DNA of 64,000 bases, from positions 1,116,001 through 1,180,000 of the forward strand of contig JADEYG010000004.1 in NCBI GenBank assembly GCA_016906335.1, given 5' to 3'. This stretch comes from Novakomyces olei. Its lineage: Eukaryota. Made by a program: the position numbers and the translations under genes. A model generated the notes under the pieces. That model searched no databases. It was not told the origin of the DNA and saw only the letters and a program-made list of their open reading frames with translations. Positions 5,866-62,438 of the stretch are shown here, piece by piece (position 1 is the first letter of the stretch; each line of letters begins with the position of its first letter).

Positions 5866-7459
5866 ATGTCCCAAGCGAACGTGTCTTTTAATGCTATCGT
5901 AAGTCAATCTATTTGTGGATTCGGCGTTGTTATGGATGAATCATTGAAAAAGAGAAAAATAGCTGGAGATTTTTTTTCAAAATTGCACATTTTTACGGCT
6001 TTGTACTCAATTTCAAGCTTTCTGAGTTGGTTAGACTCTGCGTTGAAGGCACGTAACAGATCGCGAAGCTGTTTGTGCTATCGAACGAGTAATTCACCAT
6101 TTTAAGGACGATAAAGAGCCTGATCATAGCACCAACAGGGCATAATATGCAGATTTAGCAGTGTCTAGTTTGCCTACTAAGCGCAGTGAATCGTCTGCTT
6201 TAAAGACTTTGGACGTTTCTGATAGTGAGCGTACGTTGGGCTTACCTGCGAAAAGTGTTCAAGACTTTTCTCAACTCTACAAAGGGGAGTGGCCTCCACC
6301 GCTACCCGTGATCGAAAATAAACAAATTCGAGAGATTGTATTCACTCATTTGTCATTTGCACATGATCACTTGAATGGACAAAAGAACTTTGATATTGGG
6401 CGTGAAGACAGAAAGTTCAAGTCGTTGGGCGATAGTTTGTTCAATCATATAATGCTGCTAATAATTTTTTCGCGTAATCCAACTTGGACAAAGCGCAAAA
6501 AGTCGCGAGTTCGAGCTGAACTTACCTCTAAAGTCGGCACAGTTTTATGCGGAAACATATGGGTTGCCGGAAAGGCTGCGAGTTGGGGATGAATACGTTC
6601 GTCGACAATGCATTAGCTCAGGGCCTCTTGCATCTAGTGCTGGAAATTCGTAGGATCATCTCATTGAATTCAAGCAAAGAGTAAAGATGCATGCTGACTT
6701 TTTTGAGGCCTATATTGCTGGCCTTGTCATGAGTAGTCCACCTAATGGCTATGAAGTGGCTCAAAGGTTCATTTTTGAGCTAATCAGTCCTAAGCTAAAG
6801 GATTACGAGGACGCAGAGACAAGTAAGATTGGATTGGATGAATTGGCAAAGAAAAAGGTGTAAAATTTGCTGTTTGATCTTTACGGGCCAAAGGCGCACT
6901 CTTGCATTGAATATCGTGTTGTGGATGATAATATAATGACACCCTCTGAAAGATACACAGCGGCCTTGTGTATTGGCAAATACGAAGCCGGCATCGGCCG
7001 AGCTCAGACTAAAAAGCGTGCTCGGTTGATTGCGGCTATGAAAGCTCTGTCCATTCTTGAGCAGAACTCAACCGAGCGAAGAGAACGAATCAGTAAAGAG
7101 ATTGAGCAGAAGCTGGATGGCATAGATACCAATTGCAAAGCAGTCGGTATAACTGCACAGGAGCCGTCATGTGACCCTAGAAAGCGACTTAGTCGTCGTT
7201 TGCGTTCGAATCCGACAATTCGACCGACAGTGACATGGGCGTACAAAAAATTGGGTGCAAGCCTTTGGCTTCCATTGAAAATTTGACCGATAGCTTGAAG
7301 ACAGATACCACAGAAAAAAGTGACAAAGAAAACGCAGGAGCAAAAACGATGGCGTCTCGTCAATTTTTGGCAGGCAATATGAAGAGAAAGACGAGTTTCC
7401 CGCTTATTGAATTTGATACAGTGGGTGAAGAACTTGGGTCGAAAAGAAAAAGACTTTAG
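5866..7459 (+). pseudogene. disrupted Pac1/Rnt1-type RNase III gene (RNase III domain + dsRBD)
   Basis: WPPPLP, VFTHLS, degenerate DRKFKSLGDS, ADFFEAYIAGL and dsRBD GRAQTKKRARLIAAMKAL. Frameshift near 6531; in-frame stops at 6651 (TAG) and 6861 (TAA); further stops upstream. Confidence 0.8.
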
Positions 7460-7698
7460 CCGAGTTTCGAACGACATGTTTGAGGGGACATGGTTTTTGC
7501 CCAATTTCAAGCAATACGAGTCGTGGCTTGACCAATCTTTCGGTCACGCAAGGCCATGCCTTTTTCGTTATAATCATGTTTCTACCGGTCGAAATAATCT
7601 GAATTTAAAAGCAGTTAGACCAACTTGGACAGCAATTTGACAGCGTCGGCGAAGAGTGAGGGCTGGGCAAAAGGCGCTCGCTTTTGGTGATAATTTGG

Positions 7699-8079
<381 letters not shown>

Positions 8080-8686
8080 GTCAATGTCACAGAAACGCGA
8101 CCGTACTTCCATAAAGGGAAAGCAATTACTTACCGAATTGGGGCTTGGTCCGTTTTAGGATATGAAGAAAAATATACATGATTTAAGTATAGGATTAGTT
8201 AGGGAAATGCGGAATTATTACGACTTTTATTATATACACATAAGCAGGAAAATAATCTAGTCTCAGGTACATGGTTATGGAAACAGACTACCAACAACAC
8301 GCAGTTTCGAACAAATTCAGTGCAGTGAATTTTATAAGACTTTCTGCTATTCTCTTGCGCTGAGGGCACTATTTTTGCACATTGCCGTAATAAATATTGG
8401 ACGTCAAAGGGGTTCATAATAAATAATAAGTAGTTAAATATTCATCAATAACGAATCAGGGTTAGTTAGGGTTAAAAGTAAGTCATTATTGTTTATGATT
8501 GATTCATATTGAGCAAATCTAAATTCAAGCAACTACGAGTTTCCGAAATAAATTTAATTAAATCGCCGATTTAAATGATCCAATTAAATCAAATAAATCA
8601 AATAATATAGTAATCGATAAATTCAATAGTTCCGTAATTGACAAGCTGAACAGCCTTCTCAAACGTGTCAGCGATAATCTGCTGAT

Positions 8687-11438
8687 ATGGTTTCCAAAAC
8701 GGCGGCGCTAAATCAAACTGTACATGACGCATTTGTCGATGTGGACACTGTCGTATTGGATTATTGTTTGGGTAAGATACCAATATAAAATATCAAACTG
8801 ATAAAGTCAAAGGATTTGTAGAAGATTCAGTCGAGGCTTTTGATCAAAAGGCAGAAGATGCAATTTCCACAGTGAGCGCACTTCTTTTGGACGCAGGGGG
8901 TGATGTGCACAAGGTCGAGGCATTGGAATATCAACTAAGAGAGCTCTTCAAAGAACGAGATGCAAAGAAAGAACATCATGCGGGAAATGGAGAATCTAAG
9001 CTCATGCGTCTGGATCAGACTATAAATATGGGAGCGCAGTCGCAAACAAGCTCAACGCTAGGCTTAGTAGGCGCTAAAGTAGATCTTGACGCTGTTAAGG
9101 GCAGAAAAGTCGAATCTAAAGTAGATCGGAAGAAGCTGCAAAAGGCAGAAGCAAAAATTCGTGCTAAGTGGGAGAAACGTGTCTTGAAAGCGGATTATGA
9201 ATCGTCAAAGTTGATCCAGCCAGAGCAGGCTTCGTATGAAGAATTTTATATGAACGTAAACCCGTTGCAAATGGAGTCTTCTGCTGGTAAAAATAAGGAT
9301 ATAAAGATCGACAACTTCGATCTTTCTTTTGGCAGCAAGCGTATCCTTACAGATGCTAGGTTAGACTTTTGCATTATTTAATATTCAATATTGAAGGAAA
9401 ATAAAAGTTAGTTTCTTTGATTGATATGGCTAACCGCTGTTTCTAGTCTCAATCTGTCGTATGGGAGGCGATTTGGTTTGGTTGGTTCTAACGGTGTGGG
9501 TAAATCCACACTGTTGCGAGCTATTAGTCGCCGTGAGTTAAATATTCCAAAATATATAACAATTCTCCACGTGGAACAGGAAGTTGTTGGAGATGATACG
9601 CCAGCACTACAAGCCGTGCTCGACGCCGATGTTTGGCGTAAGCATCTTTTACAAGAAAGCAACGTAAGCCTTTCGATTGGGTTTGCCAATTGGATTTCCT
9701 TTATTTCAGTCAGAAATTCGGATTATAATTGTTACCAAAATTACAATCAATTGTCATTCAAAAACACCTCTTTCCTCTGTTCTGTTCATATTTTCTTTTT
9801 TATTTCTAATATCCAAATTTCATTTTCTCTCTATCTTTGTAATCATTAACAATATATAGCGAATTCAATCTCGTCTCGGTGAAATTGGGGACGAGCTTCA
9901 AGAATACGCACAAGACAAGGACAATGCTGATCAAGCGGGAGCTCGTCGATTAGAGCGGGAGCGCGATGACCTTGATTCGCAATTTACAGATATCACAAAT
10001 CGACTTGCTGAAATGGAATCCGACAAGGCCGAATCCCGGGCTGCCACCATATTAGCAGGGTTAGGGTTTACAACAGCAGCTCAGGCGCAGGCCACAAAAC
10101 AGTTTTCTGGTGGTTGGAGAATGAGACTTTCGCTTGCTCGTGCACTCTTTTGTAACCCTGACTTATTACTGCTCGACGAGCCTTCAAACATGTTGGACGT
10201 TCCCAGTATTGCATTTTTATCAGATTATCTACAGACAAAATTTCATAATACTGTGCTTGTTGTATCCCACGATCGTGCGTTTTTGGATGAAGTGGCAACC
10301 GATATTATTCATCAGCATAGTGAACGACTCGATACTTACCGAGGCAATTTTACCCAATTTTATGCTACCAAGGAGGAGAGATCACAGCATCAAGTTAGAG
10401 AATATGAAAAACAAATGGATTACCGTCGTCATTTGCAGTCGTTCATTGACAAATTTAGGTACAATGCGGCCAAGTCTTCAGAGGCACAGAGCCGTATCAA
10501 AAAATTGGAAAAGTTACCGGTGCTAGAAGTCCCGGAAAAGGAGCAGCAAGTGGTTTTTAGGTTTCCCGAGGTGGAAAAGATATCGCCGCCTGTTATGCAG
10601 ATGGATGGTAAGAGAATTGTCAAGCTTTTATTCTTTGGGTTGTCGTTCCTCTTTTACATCATTCTAGTTTCATGTGAATTTTTATTCTAATTTCAATTTA
10701 TTCCTTTTCCTTGTCTCTAATACGCAGGTGTTACATTTGGATACTCGTCGGACCGGCTCATCTTAAAAAATGTCAATATAGATGTTCAACTCGACTCAAG
10801 AATCGGTGTAATTGGTCCAAACGGAGCGGGAAAGACTACGATGCTTAAGTTGCTGATTGAAAAGCTTCGACCAGTTTCAGGACAGTATGTGCAATTCGTT
10901 TTCTGTTTTAACCTTACTCTTCTCTATTTTTCACCTGCTCCTTTTAACAAACAGTGTCACAAAACATCCTCGTCTACGCATCGCCTATTTTGCACAGCAT
11001 CACGTCGATGCTTTGGATCTTAATTTATCAGCTCTTTCGTTTGTTTCTAAGACCTTCCCTGGATTACAGGAAGAAGAGTATCGAAGGCATTTGGGCGCCT
11101 TTGGCGTTTCTGGTCCCATGGCCTTGCAAAAAATGGCGACGCTTTCTGGAGGTCAAAAGTCTCGTGTAGCATTTGCATGCTTGGGTATGGTCCGACCTCA
11201 CATTTTGGTCATGGATGAGCCGACAAATCATCTTGACATGCAGGCCATGGATGCTCTAATCGAGGCTATTGAGAATTACGGTGGAGGAGTTATTCTCGTG
11301 AGTCACGATGTAAGTTTCTTGGATGCTGCTTGCAAGTCGCTTTGGCTTTGTGAGAATGGAACAGTGACGAAATTTGATGGAAACATTGCGCAGTACAAGA
11401 AACGGTGTTTGGAAGAGCAGGATTTGGGACAGCAATAG
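8687..11438 (+). CDS. GCN20: ABC-F family translational regulator Gcn20/ABCF3 (about 5 introns)
   Basis: Two ABC domains (GSNGVGKS, FSGGWRMR, LLDEP; GPNGAGKT, LSGGQKSR, MDEPTNHLD), no TM segments, and an N-terminal KVESKVDRKKLQKAE extension. Confidence 0.9.
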
Positions 11439-11454
11439 AGTGAATGAATGAATG

Positions 11455-11650
<196 letters not shown>

Positions 11651-11839
11651 AAAATAAATCTGACAACAATTAGAATTATTCTTATAAGCTTATTATAAAA
11701 CCCGTTAATTTCGATCTTTTTATCAGAAACTCATATTTGTACGTCAACACCTATCCATCGAAAATGCATGCAATGCAATTAATTCAGTATATATCATAAT
11801 TTTGCACGCACAAGCTCTGAGGAAAACGTATAATTTGTT

Positions 11840-18855: not shown

Positions 18856-20355
18856 TCAAGGGGCGGCCACATTAAACACCCATTTTCTACAGTTACTTGA
18901 TCCGCATCGACATTCATGCAGCCGCGCACTCCCGGCTTTGGCCCCGTGAGAATGCGAACCGGCATTTTCATTATGCTGCTGATCTTGTTGCCATCCACTG
19001 TAATCAAAACAGAGCTCTTCGAACGCTGGAATATCTCGCATTGCAAAAAGAGCCAGAGTGTAGAACCGTGTCTGTGATCTATCATGCACAACGGAATAAA
19101 TAGCCATGTTGGGGTCACACGAATGGTTGAAGAACCGTGATACACTCCCATAATGACGCGCATCGATAGTATAAAAGCCCTTGCCTTCGTCCAGCATATC
19201 TAGATCAAACAAGTAGGTCGCCTTCTCCCTTGCAAACATGACTTCGCGCCTGGAAGCCTCAGAGGGGGTTATTATCTCACCCAAGTAAGAGGCAACAAAC
19301 TGGCCCCGGCTTATCGATCTAAGACAACGCAGTCCCCAGCCCTTGTACTTTGTTTTAAATAGCTGGAAGGGCAATTGGGCCCCGCGCTGAACGACCCTAT
19401 TTCCACAGCGAATGGAGCAGCCACAATGGCTATTGCACTCATATATAATTTGGCCGGGACCCCATTTGACTCTCCCATCGGGGCTATAGGCAAACTCGGG
19501 TCTCAGCATATCGTCCAGGCACTGACAGCCCTTGGGACTTGTCAGGTCACAGACAACGCCGGTAGATGCTTTAAGTGCATTTGACAGAAAAGGCTCTTCT
19601 TCACCATCATGATGATCACAGGAACAACCCGACATAAAAGCCTTGTTGCCCTCGTCCACGTTTACTCCAAATTTGTTGCTGTGAATGAGCTGGAAAGTCA
19701 TTTCTGGACAAACTTCATCGTCTATTTCATTCACAATCTGAACTTCCGGCCCGGGGATTGAATCAAGTGCAGATTCAAACTTGGCCAGCTTCATAGATCG
19801 CGGCATTCGCCTCCACAGCTTTCGCAAAACTCCATACTGCTTAACTGGATCAAGTGTACTGAACCGAGCCATATAATCCAGATCTGTGGCATTCACATGC
19901 TGCTCCTGCAGCTCTGGCTGGTCTAGCCAATTAGCAAAATCTTCAGAGACCCGGAGATATTCGAAATCGAGCCGCCGTTTCGCCCTCGGTTTGGGTGTAG
20001 CGGATGAAGCCTTTATTAGTGTTAATGTTGATTCCTGTTTTACGGCGGACAGAGGTGCTCTCGCGTTGGAGACAAAACTCTCTATCGAAGATTCGCGGCT
20101 GATTTTGGCAGTGGTCCTTCTTTTTTGGGCCGTCCATCGCTGTAACACAGCAGGGCAGTTGTTGAGATTTTGCAGAGGCTCCCAAGTGTCTGTATCGGGG
20201 GAAAACCCGACCCAACGAACTCGGTAGACCCGAGTTCCGCCAGCGTTTGTCCTTTCGTCTACAATCTTTTCTACCTCATAAGATTCCTCCAACTTTCGCT
20301 CACTCGTTCTTTTCCTGAGACTGATTTTCCTGCTCAGTTTCACGTCACGAGCCAT
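18856..20355 (-). CDS. clr4: histone H3K9 methyltransferase Clr4/SUV39H (chromo, pre-SET, SET, post-SET)
   Basis: Chromodomain YEVEKIVDER..YRVRWVGF..DTWEPLQNL, Cys-rich pre-SET, KGWGLR, RFFNHSCDPN, EELCFDY and post-SET CRCGSSNCRK. Confidence 0.93.
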   Translation of the reverse strand: MARDVKLSRKISLRKRTSERKLEESYEVEKIVDERTNAGGTRVYRVRWVGFSPDTDTWEPLQNLNNCPAVLQRWTAQKRRTTAKISRESSIESFVSNARAPLSAVKQESTLTLIKASSATPKPRAKRRLDFEYLRVSEDFANWLDQPELQEQHVNATDLDYMARFSTLDPVKQYGVLRKLWRRMPRSMKLAKFESALDSIPGPEVQIVNEIDDEVCPEMTFQLIHSNKFGVNVDEGNKAFMSGCSCDHHDGEEEPFLSNALKASTGVVCDLTSPKGCQCLDDMLRPEFAYSPDGRVKWGPGQIIYECNSHCGCSIRCGNRVVQRGAQLPFQLFKTKYKGWGLRCLRSISRGQFVASYLGEIITPSEASRREVMFAREKATYLFDLDMLDEGKGFYTIDARHYGSVSRFFNHSCDPNMAIYSVVHDRSQTRFYTLALFAMRDIPAFEELCFDYSGWQQDQQHNENAGSHSHGAKAGSARLHECRCGSSNCRKWVFNVAAP

Positions 20356-38846: not shown

Positions 38847-38939
38847 TGCCCTGCTTGCTGCACTGTGAAAGGCAATTTGTGCAGATGTAAGCGTACCTAA
38901 TATTACAACAATATTCGTGGTTAACTTTAAACTGTACTA

Positions 38940-38977
38940 ATATAATAATAATTTTAATAATTTTAATAATAGTAATA

Positions 38978-39063
<86 letters not shown>

Positions 39064-39085
39064 TATTATTATTATTATTATTATA
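38940..39085. repeat. (TAA)n run abutting an inverted (TTA)n run
   Basis: Directly visible in the mago/SEC26 divergent promoter. Confidence 0.95.
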
Positions 39086-39227
39086 TAGTTATAATTGCAA
39101 TCTAGTTATAATTACAATAATATATACACTAGCGCCACATAATCCAAGAATAATACACCAAACACGGGTCCAACGAAAACACGTGTGGACAAATAAGAGC
39201 CTAGTTGTCTGCATTACGTGGCCAACA

Positions 39228-50871: not shown

Positions 50872-53260
50872 TGGTCTAGAATTGTTTATTTATTTATTTT
50901 TTTAATTAATTTTATTAGAATTCTTTTATTATTTTATCAGGTTGCGGCGCTGTACCCAACGAGGATCAGACTTGAAAATCTCGACCGAGCCGACAATGCC
51001 GTGGACACGCAATCCAATGAGCCCTGTGCCGACGGTGTAAATAGGAGAGAGACTCTGAATCAGACTGAATCAGGACCAATTACAGATGGGAGAACGTCCA
51101 GTGCTATGTGTAGAGAGTGCCGGTAACATGCGAGTCGCGCAGACAATGAGCGGCAATTATAGAGAGACGGCTCCGCCAGTCGCGCTCGGTTCCACACTCA
51201 CAGTAGAATTGCAATGGATGCTAAAGCCGCGACGACAACGTGAGGCAGACTCGAAAGAGCAAATGCGTCAGTCGTCGAGTGGGGACTTTGACGCTGGCGG
51301 AAGGTACGAATTGGTTTATAAGAGACAAAGTACTCGGAAATAGCGAATAGGCAAGCACGCACAAACAATGAGACGGTTGCGCACCGTACGAATTCGGCGG
51401 CGTGTGTCTACTGCATGTGATTTAACACGTCAATGTTTACGTATGCAGCAAGCATGACTTAATTATGGATAGCCGTTTATCGAGATAACAGACACGCTTG
51501 TCACTAAAGACCCAAGAGAAGCGAAAAGGGTAAAACTGCGGTTCCAGTTTTCAGGCAGGGTGTGAAACAAAGTGCAAAAACAAAATTCATTTGAGCGCTT
51601 GAGTAATCTCGCACAACGCCTAGGGCTAAGGCCCGCGCTGGATCTCGTATGGCAGCCAAAATTATGGTAGATAATGCTTTTAATTCGGTTCTTGGGTCCG
51701 GTTTTTAGAGACTAACCTGTCGGCCTTTGATCAGGCTTTCGTGCACTATTCCAGCATATGCTGCCTTTCCTCAGCGCTGCTCAAATCCGTCTCGCTCGCG
51801 CTTAATAGTCAACAAGTCCCAATGCGATAACCCATATCTGGCATTGTTCCGTAGAATCGTTCGCTCGGTGGGTCGGCAACGCTGAAACGGGACTGATAGC
51901 GAGCCAAATGTTTAGGTTTTCGTCCCGGAAAGGAAAGGCCTAGGCAACGCTCGTATTAGTCACGTGCAACGGAGGTCTCAGCCAATCACAGGATAGTGTG
52001 ATATGAAAACGGAATTGCCCTGCACCAATTATACATGTTTAAAATTAGTACATGTCCCAAAAAACCGTATTGGGCCACAAGGTGTGTGACTTTGAAGACT
52101 GATGTTTAGCGGATGTGTATATAAGAAGAGGTGGCAAATCTGTCCCGTCCAGCCGATAGAACATATGGTTTACACCGCGAATAGGCTGCGAAGCGATCCT
52201 GTTGTCATTATCTATCTGCGGGTAAACATAGTGTCTAGCAAAGCGGTACAAGGTGCTGTTAATTTTCAAGTGATACTATGGACAAGCACATTCAGGGAAA
52301 CAGCTCTAACGGAACCGTGCAGAGATTTTGGTGTAGGAGAATAGTAATAATACGTTACAAATAAGATATGGTAGTAGAGAGAATAGCATGTTGATAATAG
52401 GCGCCCATAGGCAACTTGCGGATCCAGTGTACATCTAGATCCCGTTGGGCTTTGTAGCGTTATCGAATTGTGGTGTAATGCACGATTTGACCGTGGGTTG
52501 AGAAGAGTGTATACACAAAATTGACAAGCTTATCAGTTGCTGCGCTAAACAGAACATGAATAGCCATTCATACTAAACTAAACCGTTTACGCTACACCTT
52601 GGCGGTGTCATAGACTCCGCGAGCTGGCACTCGGTAAAACATGCCCGAAGGTCTCGTAGATGCAATGCGACGCGGTACGGCGGGCGTGATATTTTTATAT
52701 AGCATACTATTAAACCACCAAATTTACGTCAGTTTGTCGGGCGCAAGTAGAAAAGTAATTTGCAACAATTAGCTGGTACGTATGTCTGCCAACACTAAAT
52801 TCGCGCTCTAGTGGCGTTTTGTGTTTGCATCTCATCTTGTGCTGGTTGGGGAGAATATAAAGCAATGTCTAATAAGGACAGGCCTCGCGTAGTACATAAT
52901 CTACAGCATGGCCAGGTTTTGTAAACTTTAGTTTTCTAATTGGAATACATGATCGTGCCGCGCTAAAGCAGTTTGTTTATAAATACTCATTCAAGCACTT
53001 GACGAATGCATCCTCAGTCTTTTCGACGACGAATGGGTTCGGTTTCGCGTGTTGAAGGCGAAGCGATTAGAAGTTGCGAGTTGTGCCTAGCGCCTGCAAA
53101 CATATCGGGGACATTGTATGAAGGCGAATTTATTCGCAGTCAACAGCAACGTTACTGGTTCATTAATTATCTGTTTTCCATACAATAAGCAACGCAAGTT
53201 TCGCCAAAGTAATTCACAAGCCATATATGAGCGTTACCACAATAATAGCGAGCTCCAAAC

Positions 53261-53805
53261 ATGGATCAGGCAACGATTGAGGAGCTGGTGCAGGAGTCAT
53301 TGAAAGCCCGCGAAGGCGCTTATGTACGATATAGCAATTTTCGTGTTGGCTCAGCAATGCTTTTTAGACGGGGCCAGGCAAATGCTGATGCTTTAGCGCC
53401 AACGAAAATATACACAGGTTCTAATATTGAAAACGCAAGTCTCGGTGCTACTATTTGTGCTGAGCGAACAAACATCGTGAAAGCTGCTTCCGAGTGTTAT
53501 CGTACAATCCTGGCAATTGCAGTTGCTTCGTAAATATAATATTGTTTATTTATTTTCTTATTTGTTTATTTATTATTTATTCTTACGCCGGCTAGGGACA
53601 TCACCCCGGCAGCCTCGCCGTGTGGCATCTGCCGCCAGTTTATTCGAGAGTTTGCTGACGATCGGGTGCCTGTGTACCTTGTTACACCCGACGGAAAATG
53701 GGAAACTACGAGTACGGGAACAGTATGTCTAGCAAAGGCTGGTACGATTACTAACTGCAACAGTTATTGCCACGTAGTTTCGGACCTGACCAGCTGTGCC
53801 CGTAG
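53261..53805 (+). CDS. CDD1: cytidine deaminase (2 introns)
   Basis: YSNFRVGSA, GSNIENAS, ICAER, SPCGICRQFIREF, and last exon LLPRSFGPDQL. Confidence 0.93.
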
Positions 53806-54738
53806 GTTGTGGTGTACGTTTGCGACGGGCGCAACGAGTTGCTGGAACTGAAGTTTGGCACAATTAGTAGATGGAAACTGGGTCTGAAACTCTATGCATT
53901 TTTATTTATAAATGCAGTCTACAATTGTTTTCGACTATTATTCTACTTACTATCGTGTCATGGTTCCTTGTACATAATTGTCGTGGCTTTACATAGGTAC
54001 TTTATACCGTTGCGGTCTTGACTATGTCGACGAGATCGGGCTGCTGTTGGTGTCTAATATTATATAGGGTACTCTCTACATGAATGCATGTAAAGAGATA
54101 GTGTCATTGGAAATTGAGTCAGGATCTCTGGCCGTCCAAAAGCAACCGTCTTTGCACTTTTGCCGGGTCATTTTCTAATTTGTAATAAGTTTGCATTATT
54201 AGTACACTAAAATGAATCGGTACAATGACAGTTGTGTGGAAAACTGAAATAGATCAGTTGGCAGATAAGCGCCTGCGCATCGATTGTGTATGGTGTTCAG
54301 CATTGAATTGAATAATACTCAACTCAGTTACCATGAGCGTCTTTTGCCAATATTATACCATCCCTTTTTACTCATATCATTTTAGTCTCGTTTCCCATAA
54401 TAGTCGTAATTAGTTTATAACGCTGTGAGGCCGCACAGAGTTCGAGGCTATTTATATCGCCAAGGGCATTAAAACGTCGGCTCGCTGCTGCAATCGTAGC
54501 GGCTTCTATTCGAAAGCAGGGCGTAGCAACAAGGACGGGCCTTTTGCTCGCTACGCGCTCAAGCACAAGGTGCTCTTCCATGGAAAAATCGCTGTATACT
54601 ATGATAGTGATAGCATCGCGAGCTGAGCCCGAGACTATTTATAGAATTAGGGAATGGCTAAGTAGTATGAATTAAATCTTTACTGCAAAAAAAAAAAAAC
54701 TAACTCCAGAATTTTACTATAATATCCTAAAAATTCTG

Positions 54739-55772
54739 TCAACTTGACTGAGCGGTGATTCTCGGAGAGTGACGTGGACTTGGTATCTCTGATAAGCAAT
54801 GGCCGTTGCTTCCAACCACAAATCCTGATCCCGTTTTGGGTAACTCTTGAGACTCCCCCGTGCCCAAAGGAGAGCTTTCAGTCTCAACAGCATTGCGTAT
54901 TGGTAGGCCTTGACTTAAACGAGTATCAATTTCTGCTTCTCGTGCAAGTCTCTCCACACAATAGGCCTTAAAAAGTAAAATGTATTTGGATGACAACCCA
55001 CCCAAGCCGATGAAAAACGCACTTAAAACGTTGTTGAAGCCGATAAAAAACGCGCTTAAAACGTTGTTGAAGCCGATGAAAAACGCGCTTAAAACGTTGT
55101 TGAAGCCGATGAAAAACTCATTCAGACTGTCAAGAAGCCCATTGCACGCAACAGCAATAATAGTGTTGTTAAACGACGAAGCCATCGTATGCTTTCCTGT
55201 CGCTGAAAGATATAGAATATTTGTATAGATTGAAGCGCACGAGAATGACCCTCCCAAATCCAAATGCTGGCTGCGTCCCATGGTCGACGCGATCGCCCCC
55301 GTCGCCAGCCCTCCAAACGTAGAAGCCCCGACCGCTTGGAGGATCCTCGATGAGGGTATTTGCTCGTGAAGCACAAAACATGTAATTGCCGAAAAGAATA
55401 TCGCTATACAGTACCGAATGGATATCAACGCCACATTTTCCCTGTATACTGCTCCCAGAGCTAAGTCTGACGAAAGCAAAACGAAAGAGGTAACAAGTAT
55501 CGGGATTATGACCTTGTTTCTTAAGCCTTCTGAGAAGTTAGTAAGAGTCTGGAAAACTAAGGGCAGGTGCTTACGCGGCCGTGTGCGTTCGTGGTCCCTG
55601 ATTTCTGGCTCTGCCCTTGTGCAACCTTTGGGTGTTAGTATGCATCAATAAATGTATTCGTACCTTCCTCAAAGCCGTGCGACCGATAGTCTGGCGGAAA
55701 TAGTGATTTGGCCTCATCGTTCTCCAAATCGGGACTTGAGCTCCTTTCCACTGCTATCCAAAGAGGCCTCAT
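54739..55772 (-). CDS. orphan multi-pass membrane protein, ~316 aa, 3 exons (introns 55626-55663, 55530-55574), with PPxY motif and 11-aa tandem repeat
   Basis: Two GT..CTAAC..AG introns join exons of 109, 51 and 791 nt in frame with the 246-aa ORF. Hydrophobic segments and (FFIGFNNVLSA)x3 are present. Confidence 0.7.
55004..55117. repeat. 33-bp coding tandem repeat, ~3.5 copies
   Basis: Units of aagccgatgaaaaacgcRcttaaaacgttgttg start at 55004, 55037, 55070 and (partial) 55103. Confidence 0.97.
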
Positions 55773-55975
55773 AATTATAGCCCTAATGTTCTATGATCGT
55801 GATGTTCCACGCTCAAAAAACAGATTTGCATGTGACATTTATCCCACGTGACCCAGCACGTGACCTGGCTATTATTTCTAGCCTTTTTCCGCCGCAATGT
55901 TGGCCGATCAACATATAGCCATTACAGTATTAAATCGTAGAAAGTCCTATCGGAGCCTTCATATTAGGCATTATA

Positions 55976-56232
55976 TCCGTAATATTGAGCTGTTGGCGGC
56001 TGATCAAGACAACTTGGATAAAAAGACGAGACTGTCTTGTAAACCGTACTAAACCCTACACACGTAGCAAAGCTTACAGCATCTATGAAAGAGTAATGTT
56101 CAAACAATGATGTTTATATTCCAAGGCTCATATCAACAAGCACAAATAATAATCTTGAAAACCCTAGTGTAGTATTTATTACGTATGCGTACATCGACAG
56201 CCATGAATAACAAATTATAATAAATCAAAATA
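55976..56232 (+). repeat. left copy of ~250-bp inverted repeat
   Basis: Matches the reverse complement of 58752-58995 with about 10 substitutions and two indels (3 and 10 nt). Confidence 0.95.
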
Positions 56233-56260
56233 AAATAAAATAAAATAAAATACAAAAAAA

Positions 56261-56806
56261 ATGCCAAACATGAAGGCTAGCAGTACGTGGCAGCGTCTAC
56301 TGCTGCAGTGGAAAATGCTACGGTTGCCATGGCGACGCCGGCGTCTGGCGGGCACAGATATGCTGGGCAACTTGTACTGGGAGATATATAACGCAGCTGC
56401 GCCAAACAGGCCGAGGAGGATGGTGGAAACGCAGGAGAAGACGCTTATGGCTGGGATGGGCCTGCACCCAGAGTGGGCTGCCTGGCTTCGGTTCCGGAGG
56501 CAGCAGCCGCCCACTTTAGGCGAACTGGTAGCGGACGAACGGAGGCAGCAAGCGATTCGGCTTAATGCTCGGCTTATTGATGAAAAATGGGCAAAGGCCG
56601 CTCAAATAGAAGCAGCAGAGACCGAGGAACTGAGCCGTCGAGCAGAGCAGAAACAACCTGAGCGGGATCCTAACTCTGCGGTGACAAAAGACGCGGATCA
56701 AAATGTGCATGTAAACGATGACTTACCGCGTCAAGTCGATCCATGGGCGGCACGGAAGGACGAGCAGGGGGTACAGGGATGGCAGCCTCGTGTAGGCCGT
56801 CGCTAG
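56261..56806 (+). CDS. NDUFA12-family protein, NDUFAF2/N7BML complex I assembly-factor type
   Basis: LRLPWRRR..GTDMLGNLYWE..RRMVE..HPEWAAWLRFRRQQPPT. Confidence 0.8.
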   Translation: MPNMKASSTWQRLLLQWKMLRLPWRRRRLAGTDMLGNLYWEIYNAAAPNRPRRMVETQEKTLMAGMGLHPEWAAWLRFRRQQPPTLGELVADERRQQAIRLNARLIDEKWAKAAQIEAAETEELSRRAEQKQPERDPNSAVTKDADQNVHVNDDLPRQVDPWAARKDEQGVQGWQPRVGRR

Positions 56807-57107
56807 GTCACGGTTTGAGAGGAAAATATGATGCATTCCTTACACGCTCTTGGCAAAATATGATTGTACTATATTTTAAGGTGGCGTCGGCATCTATGTG
56901 TGTTTCTAGACAGGTTTTGCTTGTACAACAAAAGGTTATAAACGAAAAGAATAATGTAGAAGGACATTAGTAATGTATACTGTGCAGGCATAGCGCAAAA
57001 AACAAACTCATACACGTCACGACGTGTTTATTCATATACTGGTCCGCAAAGAAGCGTTCAACGCCAAACATTTTGTCTGGTTGGCGTCGGAAAACTTTGA
57101 TCGTTAG

Positions 57108-58191
57108 CTATAGCCGACTCTTGGTTTTTGCTTCCATAAGTCGCCGTACTTGAGGATCCATTTCCTTGGCAAAGGACTCTCGTGTGAGAAATGGAAAGAC
57201 TTCTCGATGCATCAGTTGTTTGTTACCTCCGTAGGCTCCTGGTGCCGCTTTAGGCGCGTACTTGAGAATTGGTTAGCAACAGTAAATTACTCTTCGATTG
57301 CTATTCCTGTCTTGTTCAATTTCACATTTTTCTTATTCTTCTTCTTCTTCTTCTTCTTCTTCTTCTTCTTCTTCTTCTTCTTCTTCTTCTTCTTCTTCTT
57401 CTTCTTCTTCTTCTTCTTCTTCTTCTCTTCTTCATTTTCATTTTCATTTTTCTTTTCATTTTCTTTATTTTTACCTTTTTTTTTATTTCATTTCCAATCA
57501 ATATTCAGTCTTAAAATCGTACCTGTAAAGCAATTCGACGAGCGCCGTCGTGCACACTGCCGTCGGGTGCAATCTCATCAATAAACCCGGCAGTCTGTCC
57601 CTGAAGAGCAGTAAACCGGGCGCCTGCAATCATACGCAGCCGGGCACCAGCAGATACTCGAGCCCTCAGTACTGCCATAAAGCCTGCCGGGATCACTGCA
57701 CCGAAATCAACTTCATTCATACAGGCAAAGCCACGTGTTCCATTCATAACTCTGAAATCACAGGCCAAAGCGAGGCAAAGCGCCCCCGCATAGCAATGTC
57801 CGTTAATTGCAGCAACTACGGGTAACGGAAAAGTCAGTAGTCTCTCGAGCAGAGTGTAATAGCAGTCTCCATAAAAATAGTCCATATCACGCGCAGCATC
57901 ATCAAGATCAAGGCCGTTGCTGAAAAATTTTGTAATTGCCGAGCCGATTATGACAGCCGACGGCTTTCGTTGAGTGTAAACGCTGCTCTTGCCCTTGCTG
58001 CCGCACTTTTCGCTCTCGGCCTGATCGGCACGACTATCACGGTCTGCCCAGTCCAGCGCCGGCAGTAGACCATCCGCGATCAATTGTGTACGTAAGCGAT
58101 TGTCGGGCGGAGCATTCATAGTGATCCAGTATAAATTGCTCTCTGACTGCTCTACTTCGAGCTTCACTGTGCCGTCTGCAAAGGAAACCAT
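57108..58191 (-). CDS. crotonase-family enoyl-CoA isomerase/hydratase, peroxisomal (PTS1 SRL); intron 57261-57522
   Basis: FFSNGLDL, PVVAAINGHCYAGA, ALACDFRVM, NEVDFG. The second exon ends EAKTKSRL*. Confidence 0.88.
57336..57426. repeat. (CTT)n microsatellite inside the intron
   Basis: Directly visible. Confidence 0.97.
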
Positions 58192-58751
58192 ATTGCCGAT
58201 GCCGACCGAGCGTGTGGGGTAATCGTGCCCGGGCTTCTTGCTTTTCGGTTAACCCTGATTTGCATTACTTGCATACACTCAAAGGCTTTTAAGATACGAG
58301 TTTGTGTGTACGACATACGAGGAGCCTACATTTAGTGTTACTTGCTTGAGGCTATAGTATTATTTGGCATAGAATAATAAATACGTCAGCCTTATTTAGA
58401 TTGTTTCCTAAACAAAGTCAAGGCTGGATTCTACTTGGCTAACCCTAACCCTGCGTTTAATATACATTAATTAAATTTACTTGATTTTATATATATGCCA
58501 ATGCCAGCCAAGCGTTTTATTTTCTGGATAGAATAATGTCGACAGGGTTTTCTACGATTTAAACATGCTGTAATTGCTATATGTCGTTCGGCCAACACTG
58601 CGGCGGAAAAAGGCTAGAAATCATGCTCTGAAAAACAACCATGCAATACCTGTATTATATATCTTACAATTTATTTTATTTTATTTTATTTTATTTTATT
58701 TTATTTTATTTTATTTTTTATTCTCACTTCTATTCGATTTCCATTTATGTC

Positions 58752-58995
58752 TATTTTGATTTATTATAAACTTTTATTCATGGCTGTCGATGTACGCATA
58801 CGTAATAAATACTACACTAGGGTTTTCAAGATTATTATTTGTGCTTTTTGATATGAGCCTTGGAATATAAACATCATTGTTTGAACATTACTCTTTCATA
58901 GATACTGTAAGCTTTGCTACGTGTGTACGGTTTACAAAGTCTCGTCTTTTTATCCAAACTGTCTCGATCAGCCGCCAACAGCTCACGATTACGGA
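58752..58995 (-). repeat. right copy of ~250-bp inverted repeat
   Basis: Reverse-complement match to 55976-56232. Confidence 0.95.
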
Positions 58996-59089
58996 GCCCT
59001 TTTGGTTTATCTAAATTTTACTACTCTATATTTCTTTCATTATTTCTGTTGTTTCTCGGCGCAGATTTGGTCAGACAGGCTGCACCCGT

Positions 59090-60217
59090 CTATAAACTGC
59101 CCAGTGTAAAAACCACTTTTTGAACTTTGCGATTAGCAAATAGATCATAAGCCGACTCAGCGTCCGTCAGTGGAACGACTGTATCCACAAGCCCGCCCAA
59201 GTCATGTGCCACTGTTTGCTCGATTCGAAGCATTCCTTTTAGTGCCTCATTGTACATGGCTTGTACGGGGCACCTTCCAAAGACGCACGAAATGTTTTTA
59301 TCGTAACATTCGGTGGCGGAGAAGGGAATCTCCGAGTTGTGTACGCCTAAAGGTGAGAAGGCCAATTAAACAGATGGACAGTAAAAATCATGAAGAAAGG
59401 CTGAAGTGACTATCAAAAAAATAGGACAGTAGTCATAAGCGCTTGCATATCGATGGAGGAAAATGAATGGAGAAATCCTCCGACAGTAGCAGCTGTATGC
59501 AATTTAGGTCGAGGCAACAAAAAAGCGACGCCAAGGTTCAACACAACAAAATTAAGTCCAACTTACCAACCGAGGAAATTTTTCCAAACGGCCGAACTGC
59601 ATCAAACGCAGCACGCAAAGCATCTGGTCTGCCAACTACTTCTAAAACTGCATCGGCTCCACGACCATCGCTTGATGCAGCCCGAACCTTTCCGATCCAT
59701 TTTTCCGCTCCGTCTTTGGCCGAGAAAGTCTCAGCACCAAGCTGAGCAGCTCGTTCTAATCGTGCTTGCTCTATATCAACGGCAAAAACACGATCAAAAA
59801 GCGTAAGTGCGGAGGCTACTGCACAAAGACCCACGGGTCCACAACCGATAACAACCGCAATTTCGCCGTATTTTTTCGTATTTTGAAGTCCCGCGGCGGG
59901 ATAAGCATTGAAAGCACAGTAGAATCCCGTTGTGAAAACGTCACCGAGCAGCATGAGAGTTTTCTCATTTGGCATTTGTTTCAGCTCCGAAGCCGAGCTG
60001 GCCTCTACCAGATCTTGTTTCTCCAAAGAAATCAAAGTTCCATCCGCCAGTGGGACACGCAAAAACTCTGCCTGAGCTCCGTCAAGTTGTGGAGAGCCAA
60101 AAAGCTGGGAATGCTCACACCTTGACGTCTGGCCGCGTCGACAAGCATCACAGTGTTTACTAGTTGCAAGTCAGATTATGAGCAAACAAACCAACAAACA
60201 AACAAACAAACAAACAA

Positions 60218-60296
<79 letters not shown>

Positions 60297-60736
60297 ATAT
60301 CTAAATGTTTGAGAAAGAAGATAAAAATTACAATTACTCACCATGAAGTCGTAAACGCGCCGGTAACAAATTGGTCGATGCGAAATTGTTTAACTGCCGA
60401 TCCAACTTTGTAAACCGTGCCAGTAAACTCGTGTCCCTATAATTCAGTCAATAAGAAACTTAAAAGAAGGCCAAAATCAAACGTGTTTTACCATTATAAA
60501 ACCAGTTTTGTCCACGGGCTCAATGCCATGGAAGACATGCATTTCGCTACCGCAGAGACCGGCGTACCGTACTAAAAATTAGACCTTATCAGATGAAAGC
60601 AACAGCAATTGAAGAACAACAAGCATAATTAAGTACGCCTACCTTTGATAATGGCATCTGTAGGCGCTTCAATTTGTGGTATAGGCCGCTCCTCCACAAC
60701 AATTCGTCCTGGCCCCCTGAACACGACTGCCTTCAT
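59090..60736 (-). CDS. zinc-dependent MDR-family alcohol/formaldehyde dehydrogenase (about 4 introns)
   Basis: MKAVVFRGPG start, GLCGSEMH, GHEFTG, GAQAEFLRVPLADGTL, LGDVFTTG, GCGPVG Rossmann motif, GADAVLEVVG. Confidence 0.9.
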
Positions 60737-61754: not shown

Positions 61755-62152
61755 AATAATATTCAAAGCAGATACAATAACTTTTATTCGTGCGCTCACA
61801 CGTATAATGCCTGCCACACATCTCAAAATAATTATGTGTGACAGATGTACAAGTAATAATAGACCATGTACCAGGGGCACGGGACACGCACACAGGGCGA
61901 TAACTATGGAAAATACAGACACGCGTCACTGGGTTACGTATACTTCAAATACAAACAAATATTGGACAACAATTGCAATTCAAGTATTAAAGGCAATCTT
62001 TATCATTTGAGCCACATTCAATTGTGCTTGTCACTAGCGGCGGACAAATTCGATTTTCGTGTAGAATGCAACTCTATCGGGCAGCCTTAAACGTTAAAAG
62101 CATTGGCCTAAATGTCTATTATTACCAGTGGATTAATCTTCAACAATTTACA

Positions 62153-62296
62153 AATATCCACAATATATCCACAATATATATCCACAATATATCCACAATA
62201 TATCCACAATATATCCACAATATATCCACAATATATCCACAATATATCCACAATATATCCACAATATATCCACAATATATCCACAATATAATCACA
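62153..62296. repeat. (ATATCCACA[AT])n 9-13-bp minisatellite
   Basis: Directly visible between the RPL15 and CPA1 promoters. Confidence 0.95.
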
Positions 62297-62438
62297 ATAC
62301 ATATCGCGCAAACACCAACATGTCCCATCGATACATAATCAGCCTTAATTTTGCCATCTATAATGTATACCGAAATTATTTATTAATTTATTCCGAATAT
62401 CATCCACAATCAAATTTTGTCTCTCGCCACACCCGTTC

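Follow-up and report, generated by a model that had tools for sequence, protein, structure and literature searches.

The window (the whole 64-kb stretch of DNA that was analysed) appears to contain a real-looking, previously unannotated three-exon coding gene, as predicted from the sequence. The best explanation, to which we assign a probability of roughly 60%, is that this gene is one member of a young, lineage-restricted family of about five or more sister copies. The family would encode PY-tailed membrane proteins that are sorted by Rsp5/NEDD4-type ubiquitination. What is new is a set of four to five sister versions of the sequence, seen in the contigs of run X1. That the gene is expressed, how the protein sits in the membrane, and whether it binds a ligase, is sorted, or acts selfishly are matters of inference. 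The features of the locus and its surroundings are given in Table 1.

The PPxY motif of the N-terminal tail could dock the WW domains of a Rsp5/NEDD4-type HECT ligase. The array of 3.5 units of 11 residues may form a long helix, and partners could co-assemble through this repeat helix. Ubiquitination of the protein and its co-assembled partners would then send them out of the Golgi towards the endosome and vacuole. If the family is expressed, a part of the ascomycetes that has been little sampled gains a lineage-specific set of PY-tailed membrane proteins that had not been annotated.

Table 1. Positions of the gene, its protein features, and the neighbouring repeats in the window.
Feature	Position	Strand	Description
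Exon 1	55664..55772	-	109 nt; ATG at 55772; 36 codons + 1 nt; acidic, Ser-rich N-terminal tail
Intron 1	55626..55663	-	38 nt; GTACGA...TACTAAC, then 8 nt to AG (ends AAG)
Exon 2	55575..55625	-	51 nt; charged linker without ATG
Intron 2	55530..55574	-	45 nt; GTAAGC...TACTAAC, then 7 nt to AG (ends CAG)
Exon 3	54739..55529	-	262 whole codons + stop; hydrophobic body, Ser/Pro-rich C-terminal tail
PPDY (PPxY / PY motif)	55686..55697	-	residues 26-29, exon 1
Two strongest predicted transmembrane helices	55366..55512	-	residues about 60-80 and 86-108
33-bp tandem repeat	55004..55117	-	3.5 copies, 96% matches, encodes FFIGFNNVLSA (Tandem Repeats Finder)
Multi-copy core	55074..55775	.	run X1 summed contig depth 6,252-6,807 vs about 1,060-1,120 on flanks; the sum is no copy number, and other organisms in the run would add to it
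12-nt tandem duplication	55842..55865	-	CACGTG in each unit; 70-93 nt upstream of ATG
Repeat A	55871..55952	.	82 nt; starts 99 bp upstream of ATG; inverted copy 58540-58624 (86%)
Repeat B	55976..56255	.	280 nt; starts 204 bp upstream of ATG; inverted copy 58728-58995 (89%)

Gene Model and Splicing

The original prediction placed a hidden three-exon gene on the minus strand at 55772..54739, and this was confirmed by direct reading and by a scripted recomputation. With the exons joined by script, the spliced frame is 951 nt, or 316 codons and a stop, which agrees with the earlier estimate of about 316 aa. The translation of exon 1 was reproduced exactly. The size of 246 aa that had been given for the main ORF was inexact. 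Read from ATG to stop, the ORF has 180 aa; the frame between two stops runs for 301 codons, and exon 3 holds 262 whole codons. There is an in-frame stop six codons 5' of the exon 1 ATG, and this ATG has an A at -3.

Two short canonical introns of 38 and 45 nt with CTAAC branch points had been described. Both are present, and in each the branch point lies within TACTAAC. This heptamer occurs nine times on the two strands of the 64-kb window, and two of the nine sit in the two introns of the gene. The full intron pattern (GTA[ACT]G.., NACTAAC, 2-12 nt, AG) was counted six times in the window, where 60 first-order Markov simulations gave 1.6 on average. In addition, the neighbouring conserved cytidine deaminase gene requires an intron of the same kind (53712-53763, GTACGG...TACTAAC...CAG). 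The introns of the gene follow the style seen locally and are more than chance would give. Intron 2 keeps the frame and has no stop, so its retention would also leave an open frame, of 331 aa.

The exon 3 frame has a codon-usage score of +0.02 bits per codon, and the other five frames score from -0.10 to -0.47. A plus-strand gene at the locus was ruled out (the antisense frames score -0.47, -0.10, and -0.43). The 14 Pfam-supported ORFs of the window range from +0.01 to +0.28. The score of exon 3, the best of the six frames, falls within this range, which together with the stop-free frame of 301 codons speaks for a gene; that it sits at the very bottom of the range counts against one.

Predicted Protein

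The product is predicted to be a multi-pass membrane protein, and its N-terminal tail is presumably cytosolic. The tail that precedes the first predicted helix is acidic and 57 residues long. Exon 1 was said to encode a DLE motif followed by a PPxY motif, and both are found there, at residues 15-17 and 26-29. The 7,510 residues of 16 other ORFs in the window contain no PPxY, and composition predicts 0.004 per 57-residue tail. A lone PPxY may be due to chance and the motif was chosen post hoc in the original prediction, which counts against its significance.

Several hydrophobic segments had been noticed in the body of the protein, and the Kyte-Doolittle profile bears them out. The two strongest helices reach maxima of 2.18 and 2.07 in 19-residue windows, and several weaker segments rich in Gly, Ala, and Ser are present besides these. 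The C-terminal tail of about 75 residues is disordered and rich in Ser and Pro.

The 33-bp repeat encoding 3.5 copies of FFIGFNNVLSA was recovered by Tandem Repeats Finder with a period of 33. The array is both hydrophobic and amphipathic, with an 11-residue period and stripes of Asn. Its hydrophobic moment is 0.92 at 98.2 degrees vs 0.12 at 180 degrees. A single-sequence AF2 model of the protein had low confidence (pLDDT 54, pTM 0.29). The two N-terminal hydrophobic segments were modelled as helices, and the array was the only part of the model that reached a pLDDT around 80-89.

Sister Copies in Run X1

Run X1 is source-like, and the contigs of runs X3 and X4 matched only low-complexity DNA. 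A family of paralogues, which the original prediction had proposed to look for, is visible in the contigs of run X1 as four to five further versions of the gene, which cover its 5' two-thirds. Other letters are found in four contigs at 55460-55472 and in five at 55557. These variant contigs have depths of about 1,070-1,640 each, which is about single-copy. A tblastn search with the spliced product found no second copy within the 64-kb window.

The variant counts given here refer to those listed, which are 40 of 122 substitutions and 12 of 14 indels. Among them are seven indels from run X1. Six of these are at 55775-55856, at most 85 nt upstream of the ATG, and one is at 58524; none is in the 1,034-nt gene (54739-55772). 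The 29 exonic substitutions listed, 10 synonymous and 19 non-synonymous, do not create a stop, and the replacements are mostly conservative (V/I, I/L, T/S, F/Y, R/K). Since 10 synonymous changes of 29 is about the share expected at random (24-34%), purifying selection on the residues is not apparent. In run X2, one contig (depth 7.9) lacks 1 nt at 55352, which counts against preservation of the frame. Sister versions with indels outside the coding region point to a young, frame-preserving gene family.

The depth of run X1 drops to 2,227-2,808 over 54606-55073, with loose ends at 54796 and 54842. One contig each in X1 and X2 joins 54991 to 55106 and skips 114 nt; contigs built from short words cannot resolve the 33-bp array. 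Copy-number variation of the repeat was considered for this skip and was dropped, since the assembly may have collapsed here.

A decaying dispersed repeat, or a dead gene family, could also have left such copies. The open frame would then be a leftover from a recent duplication burst, unexpressed and non-functional, and the locus would be no more than a dispersed repeat of recent origin whose frame is open. This is rather unlikely for a stop-free frame of 301 codons, which far exceeds chance at 44% G+C, and for two introns that are intact with full splice signals. The near-random ratio of 10:19 among the listed substitutions is consistent with a dead family. However, the 29 listed exonic changes include no stop, and the listed indels of X1 avoid the gene. 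A dead family would also fit the barely positive codon score, the single frameshifted version in X2, the lack of a homologue in any search, and copies that, from the drop in depth and the loose ends, seem to diverge or break off within the 3' third.

Homology Searches and Host

Exon 1, exon 3, and the read-through from exon 2 to exon 3 were searched with hmmscan, and no Pfam-A family was found at E<=1 or at E<=10. In a word-based homologue search, none of 7,810 candidates reached E<=0.01. A HMMER search of 1.84 billion representatives returned seven hits at E<=0.001. Six of these are unrelated repeat proteins; in five of them the alignment falls mainly on the FFIGFNNVLSA array, and in one on residues 55-83. 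In the remaining hit, the best stretch covers query residues 82-149. No usable hit for the gene product came from the ESM Atlas, the PDB sequences gave one match at the level of noise (E=1.4), and none of 197 pattern matches in JGI metagenome contigs was confirmed. The Pfam, word-based, and HMMER searches did not reveal an orthologue from any known non-driver family.

By these searches, the gene is an orphan with no detectable relatives elsewhere. This absence says little about close relatives, because the proteome of the organism is missing from the protein collection; 10 other ORFs of the window have no exact entry in it. The Clr4 ORF of the window is 35-46% identical to any Clr4 of Schizosaccharomyces or Pneumocystis. 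The host fungus is judged to be Taphrinomycotina-like and distant from every annotated genome, and it is no Schizosaccharomyces.

Comparison with wtf Drivers

The hallmark of wtf drivers is a second, PY-less isoform, expressed from a FLEX promoter, whose start lies within intron 1 or at the beginning of exon 2. In the present gene, intron 1 holds one ATG, which is out of frame, and exon 2 holds none. The next in-frame ATG is codon 137, which lies beyond the two strongest helices. The original prediction had seen no in-frame poison ATG and no FLEX motif in intron 1, and this was borne out for the 38-nt intron. The Mei4 FLEX motif (GTAAACAAACA) has 37 matches with up to two mismatches in the window and none in 54600-56300. 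Some wtf genes of S. octosporus are described in PMC9562144 as having no confident FLEX motif.

The architecture had been called wtf-like. This stood for the layout, with a PPxY in the N-terminal tail, several helices, and a 33-bp coding repeat. It did not stand for homology to wtf, and there is no Pfam match. The gene is no demonstrable member of the wtf family as far as its sequence can tell, and the resemblance is one of layout. According to PMC10721834, wtf antidotes possess an N-terminal cytosolic PY motif and multiple transmembrane helices, and a PY motif in the cytosolic N-terminal tail of a membrane protein binds Rsp5/NEDD4 ligases and causes sorting from Golgi to endosome. The claim that DLEKG is a wtf motif was unverified. 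"DLE" does not occur in the main text of PMC10721834, and of 7 papers that contain "DLEKG", the 5 listed are not on wtf.

The gene shares a number of properties with wtf. It encodes a multi-pass membrane protein of about 300 aa with an N-terminal cytosolic tail that carries L/PPxY, the topology here being predicted. Its coding region contains a repeat that keeps the frame, with a unit of 33 bp (11 residues); exon 3 of wtf4 has two coding repeats that total 66 bp (PMC11892871). The family is multi-copy with fast residue change, as seen here in the contigs of run X1. The introns are short and dispersed repeats adjoin the gene.

A driver function is possible for the gene. A wtf-type killer meiotic driver would be a homologue that has diverged very far or an analogue that arose by convergence, with the PY-bearing long form as a ubiquitin-sorted antidote and a PY-less form, of this gene or of sister copies, as a self-assembling membrane poison. 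The PY tail, the helices, and the coding repeat match the layout of a wtf antidote, and the multi-copy family with near-neutral residue change and a kept frame, together with the dispersed repeats that abut the gene, would fit as well. A convergent driver is plausible because the Spk-1 family drivers of Neurospora encode membrane proteins with a conserved PY motif (PMC10721834). These spore killers form a single-gene family in an unrelated host lineage, and what links the gene to them is the motif-plus-membrane design only.

A wtf-type driver is nonetheless improbable. The gene has three exons, whereas wtf genes have five to six. Intron 1 lacks the length for an internal promoter and has a single, out-of-frame ATG, and between the PY motif and codon 137 no in-frame ATG is present from which a PY-less isoform could start. 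There is no FLEX-like match in 54600-56300, and the window has no 5S rRNA or tRNA gene. No WTF model was matched, because Pfam was empty at E<=10. The distant Taphrinomycotina-like host is far from Schizosaccharomyces, and according to PMC9562144, PSI-BLAST found no wtf in S. japonicus or beyond the fission yeasts.

The PY motif, helices, 11-residue repeat, diverging copies, and a kept frame with near-neutral residue change make up the design that underlies the toxin-antidote duality of wtf. Since this combination of features equals the wtf design, the family is a concrete candidate for asking whether the design arose or persisted outside fission yeasts. It is a long shot that a distant Taphrinomycotina-like fungus possesses its own wtf-like selfish family. 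The PY-tailed form would be neutralised by Rsp5-type sorting and the PY-less or mismatched-repeat members would be poisons, whether the family is a very old wtf relative or an independent invention.

Rsp5 Adaptors

The Rsp5 adaptors include Bsd2/NDFIP, Ear1/Ssh4, Tre1, Sna3, and Rcr, in which the PY motif brings the ligase to other cargo. Known adaptors are conserved, mostly as single copies, and the Bsd2/NDFIP type is shared by fungi and animals at low copy number. The gene is like the Bsd2/NDFIP adaptors in its N-terminal cytosolic PPxY followed by transmembrane helices, a common design, and in its predicted ligase recruitment and endosomal/vacuolar sorting. It is unlike them in being multi-copy, in its internal tandem repeat, and in having no Pfam match. 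A housekeeping adaptor of one of these kinds is doubtful for a multi-copy gene with no orthologues and near-neutral change, and no known adaptor family was matched because Pfam was empty at E<=10, which also counts against it. The young family of PY-tailed membrane proteins is the preferred reading.

Upstream Region and Nearby Repeats

A repeat copy had been reported about 200 bp from the gene. This holds for Repeat B; it is not the nearest repeat, which is Repeat A. Repeat B sits between the gene and an NDUFA12-like gene. Both repeats are unclassified, and their inverted copies are 2.6 kb away. No LTR was identified next to the gene, and the 64-kb window has no Rfam match, hence no 5S rRNA, and no tRNA gene. 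Contigs switch between the two copies of Repeat A. Closer to the ATG, there are sister copies that possess one unit fewer of the 12-nt tandem duplication, with 12 nt left out at 55845 and 55856.

Gene model

The minus-strand gene appears to consist of three exons and two short introns (see table). Joining the exons by script gives a spliced frame of 951 nt (316 codons and the stop), in agreement with the 38- and 45-nt introns and roughly 316 residues originally predicted. The predicted exon 1 translation is an exact match, residues 15-17 being DLE and residues 26-29 PPDY. The predicted 246-residue ORF is actually a 180-residue ATG ORF within a 301-codon stop-to-stop frame. Intron 2 is in frame and stop-free, and its retention would also keep the frame open (script).

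Coordinates of the gene parts and the upstream repeats
Feature	Position	Strand	Remarks
Exon 1	55772..55664	-	109 nt; window cut at proposed borders by script
Intron 1	55663..55626	-	38 nt; GTACGA...TACTAAC, then 8 nt to AG
Exon 2	55625..55575	-	51 nt
Intron 2	55574..55530	-	45 nt; GTAAGC...TACTAAC, then 7 nt to AG
Exon 3	55529..54739	-	includes stop; 262 whole codons
Repeat A	55871-55952		inverted copy 58540-58624; 86%
Repeat B	55976-56255		inverted copy 58728-58995; 89%

TACTAAC occurs nine times on both strands of the window (5.75 expected), and two of the nine fall in the proposed introns. Complete intron patterns number six, compared with an average of 1.6 over 60 first-order Markov simulations. 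The neighboring cytidine deaminase regains its conserved C-terminal residues only when 53712-53763 (GTACGG...TACTAAC...CAG) is removed; thus, short introns of this style are used by the genome. Codon usage was scored as a log-ratio, for which 14 window ORFs with Pfam support (6,874 codons) served as the training set. The spliced frame scores +0.02 bits/codon and the other five frames -0.10 to -0.47, while the training genes span +0.01 to +0.28. It is the best of the six frames, yet it lies at the bottom edge of the range for real genes. The original observation holds, and this is probably a real gene, whose splicing and expression we infer. Just past its stop is a 45-nt intron-like string on the plus strand (54665-54709, GTATGA...CTAAC...CAG), with no convincing plus-strand gene around it.

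Putative sister copies in the same genome

The main new result is the presence of putative sister copies. Contigs of four public sequencing runs, X1 to X4, were compared with 52500-59500 at a likeness of at least 85%. X1 contains the window exactly, in pieces with no other letters at a word depth of about 1,060-1,120, and appears to be the source or to come from the same strain. X2 has the same sequences at a depth of 2-8, and X3 and X4 match only on low-complexity DNA. In X1, the summed depth, which is not equal to copy number, is 6,252-6,807 over 55074-55775 and 2,227-2,937 over 54372-55073 and 55776-56009. Four further contigs carry another letter at 55460, 55464, 55468, and 55472 (5,960.7/7,032.3), and five do so at 55557 (7,948.2/9,116.3). 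Taken singly, the variant contigs are about 1,070-1,640 deep, as is single-copy DNA. These at least four to five further sequence versions, the kind of paralogue family that the original prediction had proposed to look for, can be read as at least four to five sister copies that share the gene's 5' two-thirds, along with both introns, at about 85-95% identity. The 3' third appears to be common to fewer copies. Loose contig ends at 54796 and 54842 mark copies departing in the C-terminal tail. One contig each in X1 and X2 skips 692 nt by passing from 53896 directly to 54589, with only 30 letters on the shorter side; at another locus, the stretch 53897-54588, downstream of the gene, may be absent.

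The variants listed are 40 of the 122 substitutions and 12 of the 14 indels. Among those listed, 33 substitutions lie within the gene and 29 of these are exonic: 10 synonymous, 19 residue-changing, and no stops. Random change would be 24% synonymous (34% for transitions), so with 10/29 the residues are not visibly constrained. Most listed replacements are conservative (V/I, I/L, T/S, F/Y, R/K, A/V). All seven X1 indels listed are outside the gene, six of them clustered at 55775-55856, immediately before the ATG, and the seventh at 58524, leaving none in its 1,034 nt. The sole indel listed within the gene is a 1-nt deletion at 55352 in one low-depth X2 contig. Dead DNA is a poorer fit to this combination of intact frame and near-neutral residue change than a coding family that is young or evolving fast. 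A very recent duplication burst could also account for the pattern.

Predicted product

By Kyte-Doolittle analysis, the 57-residue N-terminal tail is hydrophilic and acidic. Two helices of strong hydrophobicity follow, spanning roughly residues 60-80 and 86-108, and weaker hydrophobic stretches rich in Gly, Ala, and Ser reach to about residue 190. An 11-residue repeat makes up the hydrophobic zone at 198-240, and the C-terminal tail, about 75 residues long, is hydrophilic and rich in Ser and Pro. Tandem Repeats Finder recovered the predicted 33-bp unit encoding FFIGFNNVLSA (55004-55117, 3.5 copies, 96% matches). At 98.2 degrees per residue, or three turns per 11 residues, its hydrophobic moment is 0.92, versus 0.12 at 180 degrees. 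These values correspond to a helix that has a single aromatic/aliphatic face and a single Asn/Ser stripe. Such stripes can drive helix-helix association in membranes. The AlphaFold2 single-sequence model is poor (pLDDT 54, pTM 0.29), with the repeat helix alone at pLDDT 80-89. PPxY is rare in window ORFs, with none in 7,510 residues of 16 others and 0.004 expected per 57-residue tail, the motif having been picked post hoc.

Homologues and host

Pfam was searched with exon 1, exon 3, and the read-through from exon 2 into exon 3, and no family matched at E<=1 or E<=10, so the suggested check against the WTF family profile returned nothing at E<=10. No relative was found by a word-indexed protein search or in the ESM Atlas, PDB sequences, or JGI metagenome contigs. 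HMMER against 1.84 billion representatives gave seven matches at E<=0.001. Six, all but P0008, were inspected and are unrelated repeat proteins; in five the alignment falls mostly on the FFIGFNNVLSA array, in the sixth on residues 55-83.

A Clr4/SUV39-type ORF with chromo, Pre-SET, and SET domains (18856-20355, minus strand) has its best matches, 35-46% identical, in Schizosaccharomyces and Pneumocystis, then Saitoella. This indicates a Taphrinomycotina-like host with no close annotated relative and, judged by this ORF, a deep, poorly sampled branch. Ten other window ORFs are also missing from the protein collection. With so distant a host, the empty searches carry limited weight, and "orphan" would here mean that relatives escape detection over a very great distance. 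The ORF at 56261-56806 (plus strand) has an NDUFA12 domain (E 7e-9), a hint that the host retains respiratory complex I or its assembly factor. Fission yeasts are not known to retain either.

Comparison with wtf drivers

The wtf antidotes are described in PMC10721834 as multi-pass membrane proteins whose N-terminal cytosolic tail binds Rsp5/NEDD4 ligases through L/PPxY motifs. Ubiquitination takes them from the trans-Golgi to the endosome and prevents toxicity, and a PY motif is also conserved in the Neurospora Spk-1 family (PMC10721834). According to PMC11892871, S. pombe wtf genes mostly have exon 3 coding repeats (two in wtf4, 66 bp in total), exon 6 also has repeats, and repeat number influences poison-antidote matching. 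The gene shares with wtf the layout of PY tail and predicted helices, a coding repeat (here a 33-bp unit), multiple fast-changing copies, and adjoining repeats; this part of the predicted resemblance held.

On other points the gene differs. It shows no sequence similarity to wtf in the Pfam search, belongs to a different host lineage, and differs in exon number. PMC9562144 places the poison promoter, with a FLEX motif, in intron 1, describes most intact wtf genes as having a start codon in frame close to where exon 2 begins, and reports that searches of S. japonicus and beyond the fission yeasts recovered no wtf gene. The intron 1 seen here, at only 38 nt, leaves no room for an internal promoter. 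As the original prediction had cautioned, no PY-less start is available in frame, the next ATG being codon 137, and none of 37 loose FLEX matches in the window falls in 54600-56300. DLEKG, also named as a wtf motif, was not confirmed in the main text of PMC10721834, where DLE does not occur.

Judged on sequence, the gene cannot be shown to belong to wtf. The reading with most support is a PY-tailed membrane protein that would be handled by Rsp5-type ubiquitin sorting and would come from a young family restricted to this lineage. The multiple copies count in favor of a wtf-like selfish role and the missing second isoform counts against it; this role is quite unlikely, but reasonable as a hypothesis and inexpensive to test.

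Surroundings

The inverted copies of A and B, two unclassified upstream repeats, are swapped in order, and both sets bracket the NDUFA12-like and enoyl-CoA hydratase genes. Repeat B is just upstream of a gene start at both places. Contigs switch between repeat A and its copy, which suggests that A is part of the gene family's upstream region. In the presumed promoter, 70-93 nt upstream of the ATG, there is a 12-nt tandem duplication (55842-55865) with CACGTG in each unit; sister copies in X1 and X2 are missing one unit. No tRNA genes or Rfam families were found in the window, and therefore no 5S rRNA. The rest is ordinary housekeeping DNA, including tubulin, fumarase, Cch1-type channel, coatomer beta, and RPL15 genes. 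Long microsatellite-like arrays with periods of 3, 4-8, and 11 nt are numerous between the genes, at 7592-8200, 11395-11712, 38921-39103, 57289-57485, 60156-60307, and 62118-62326.
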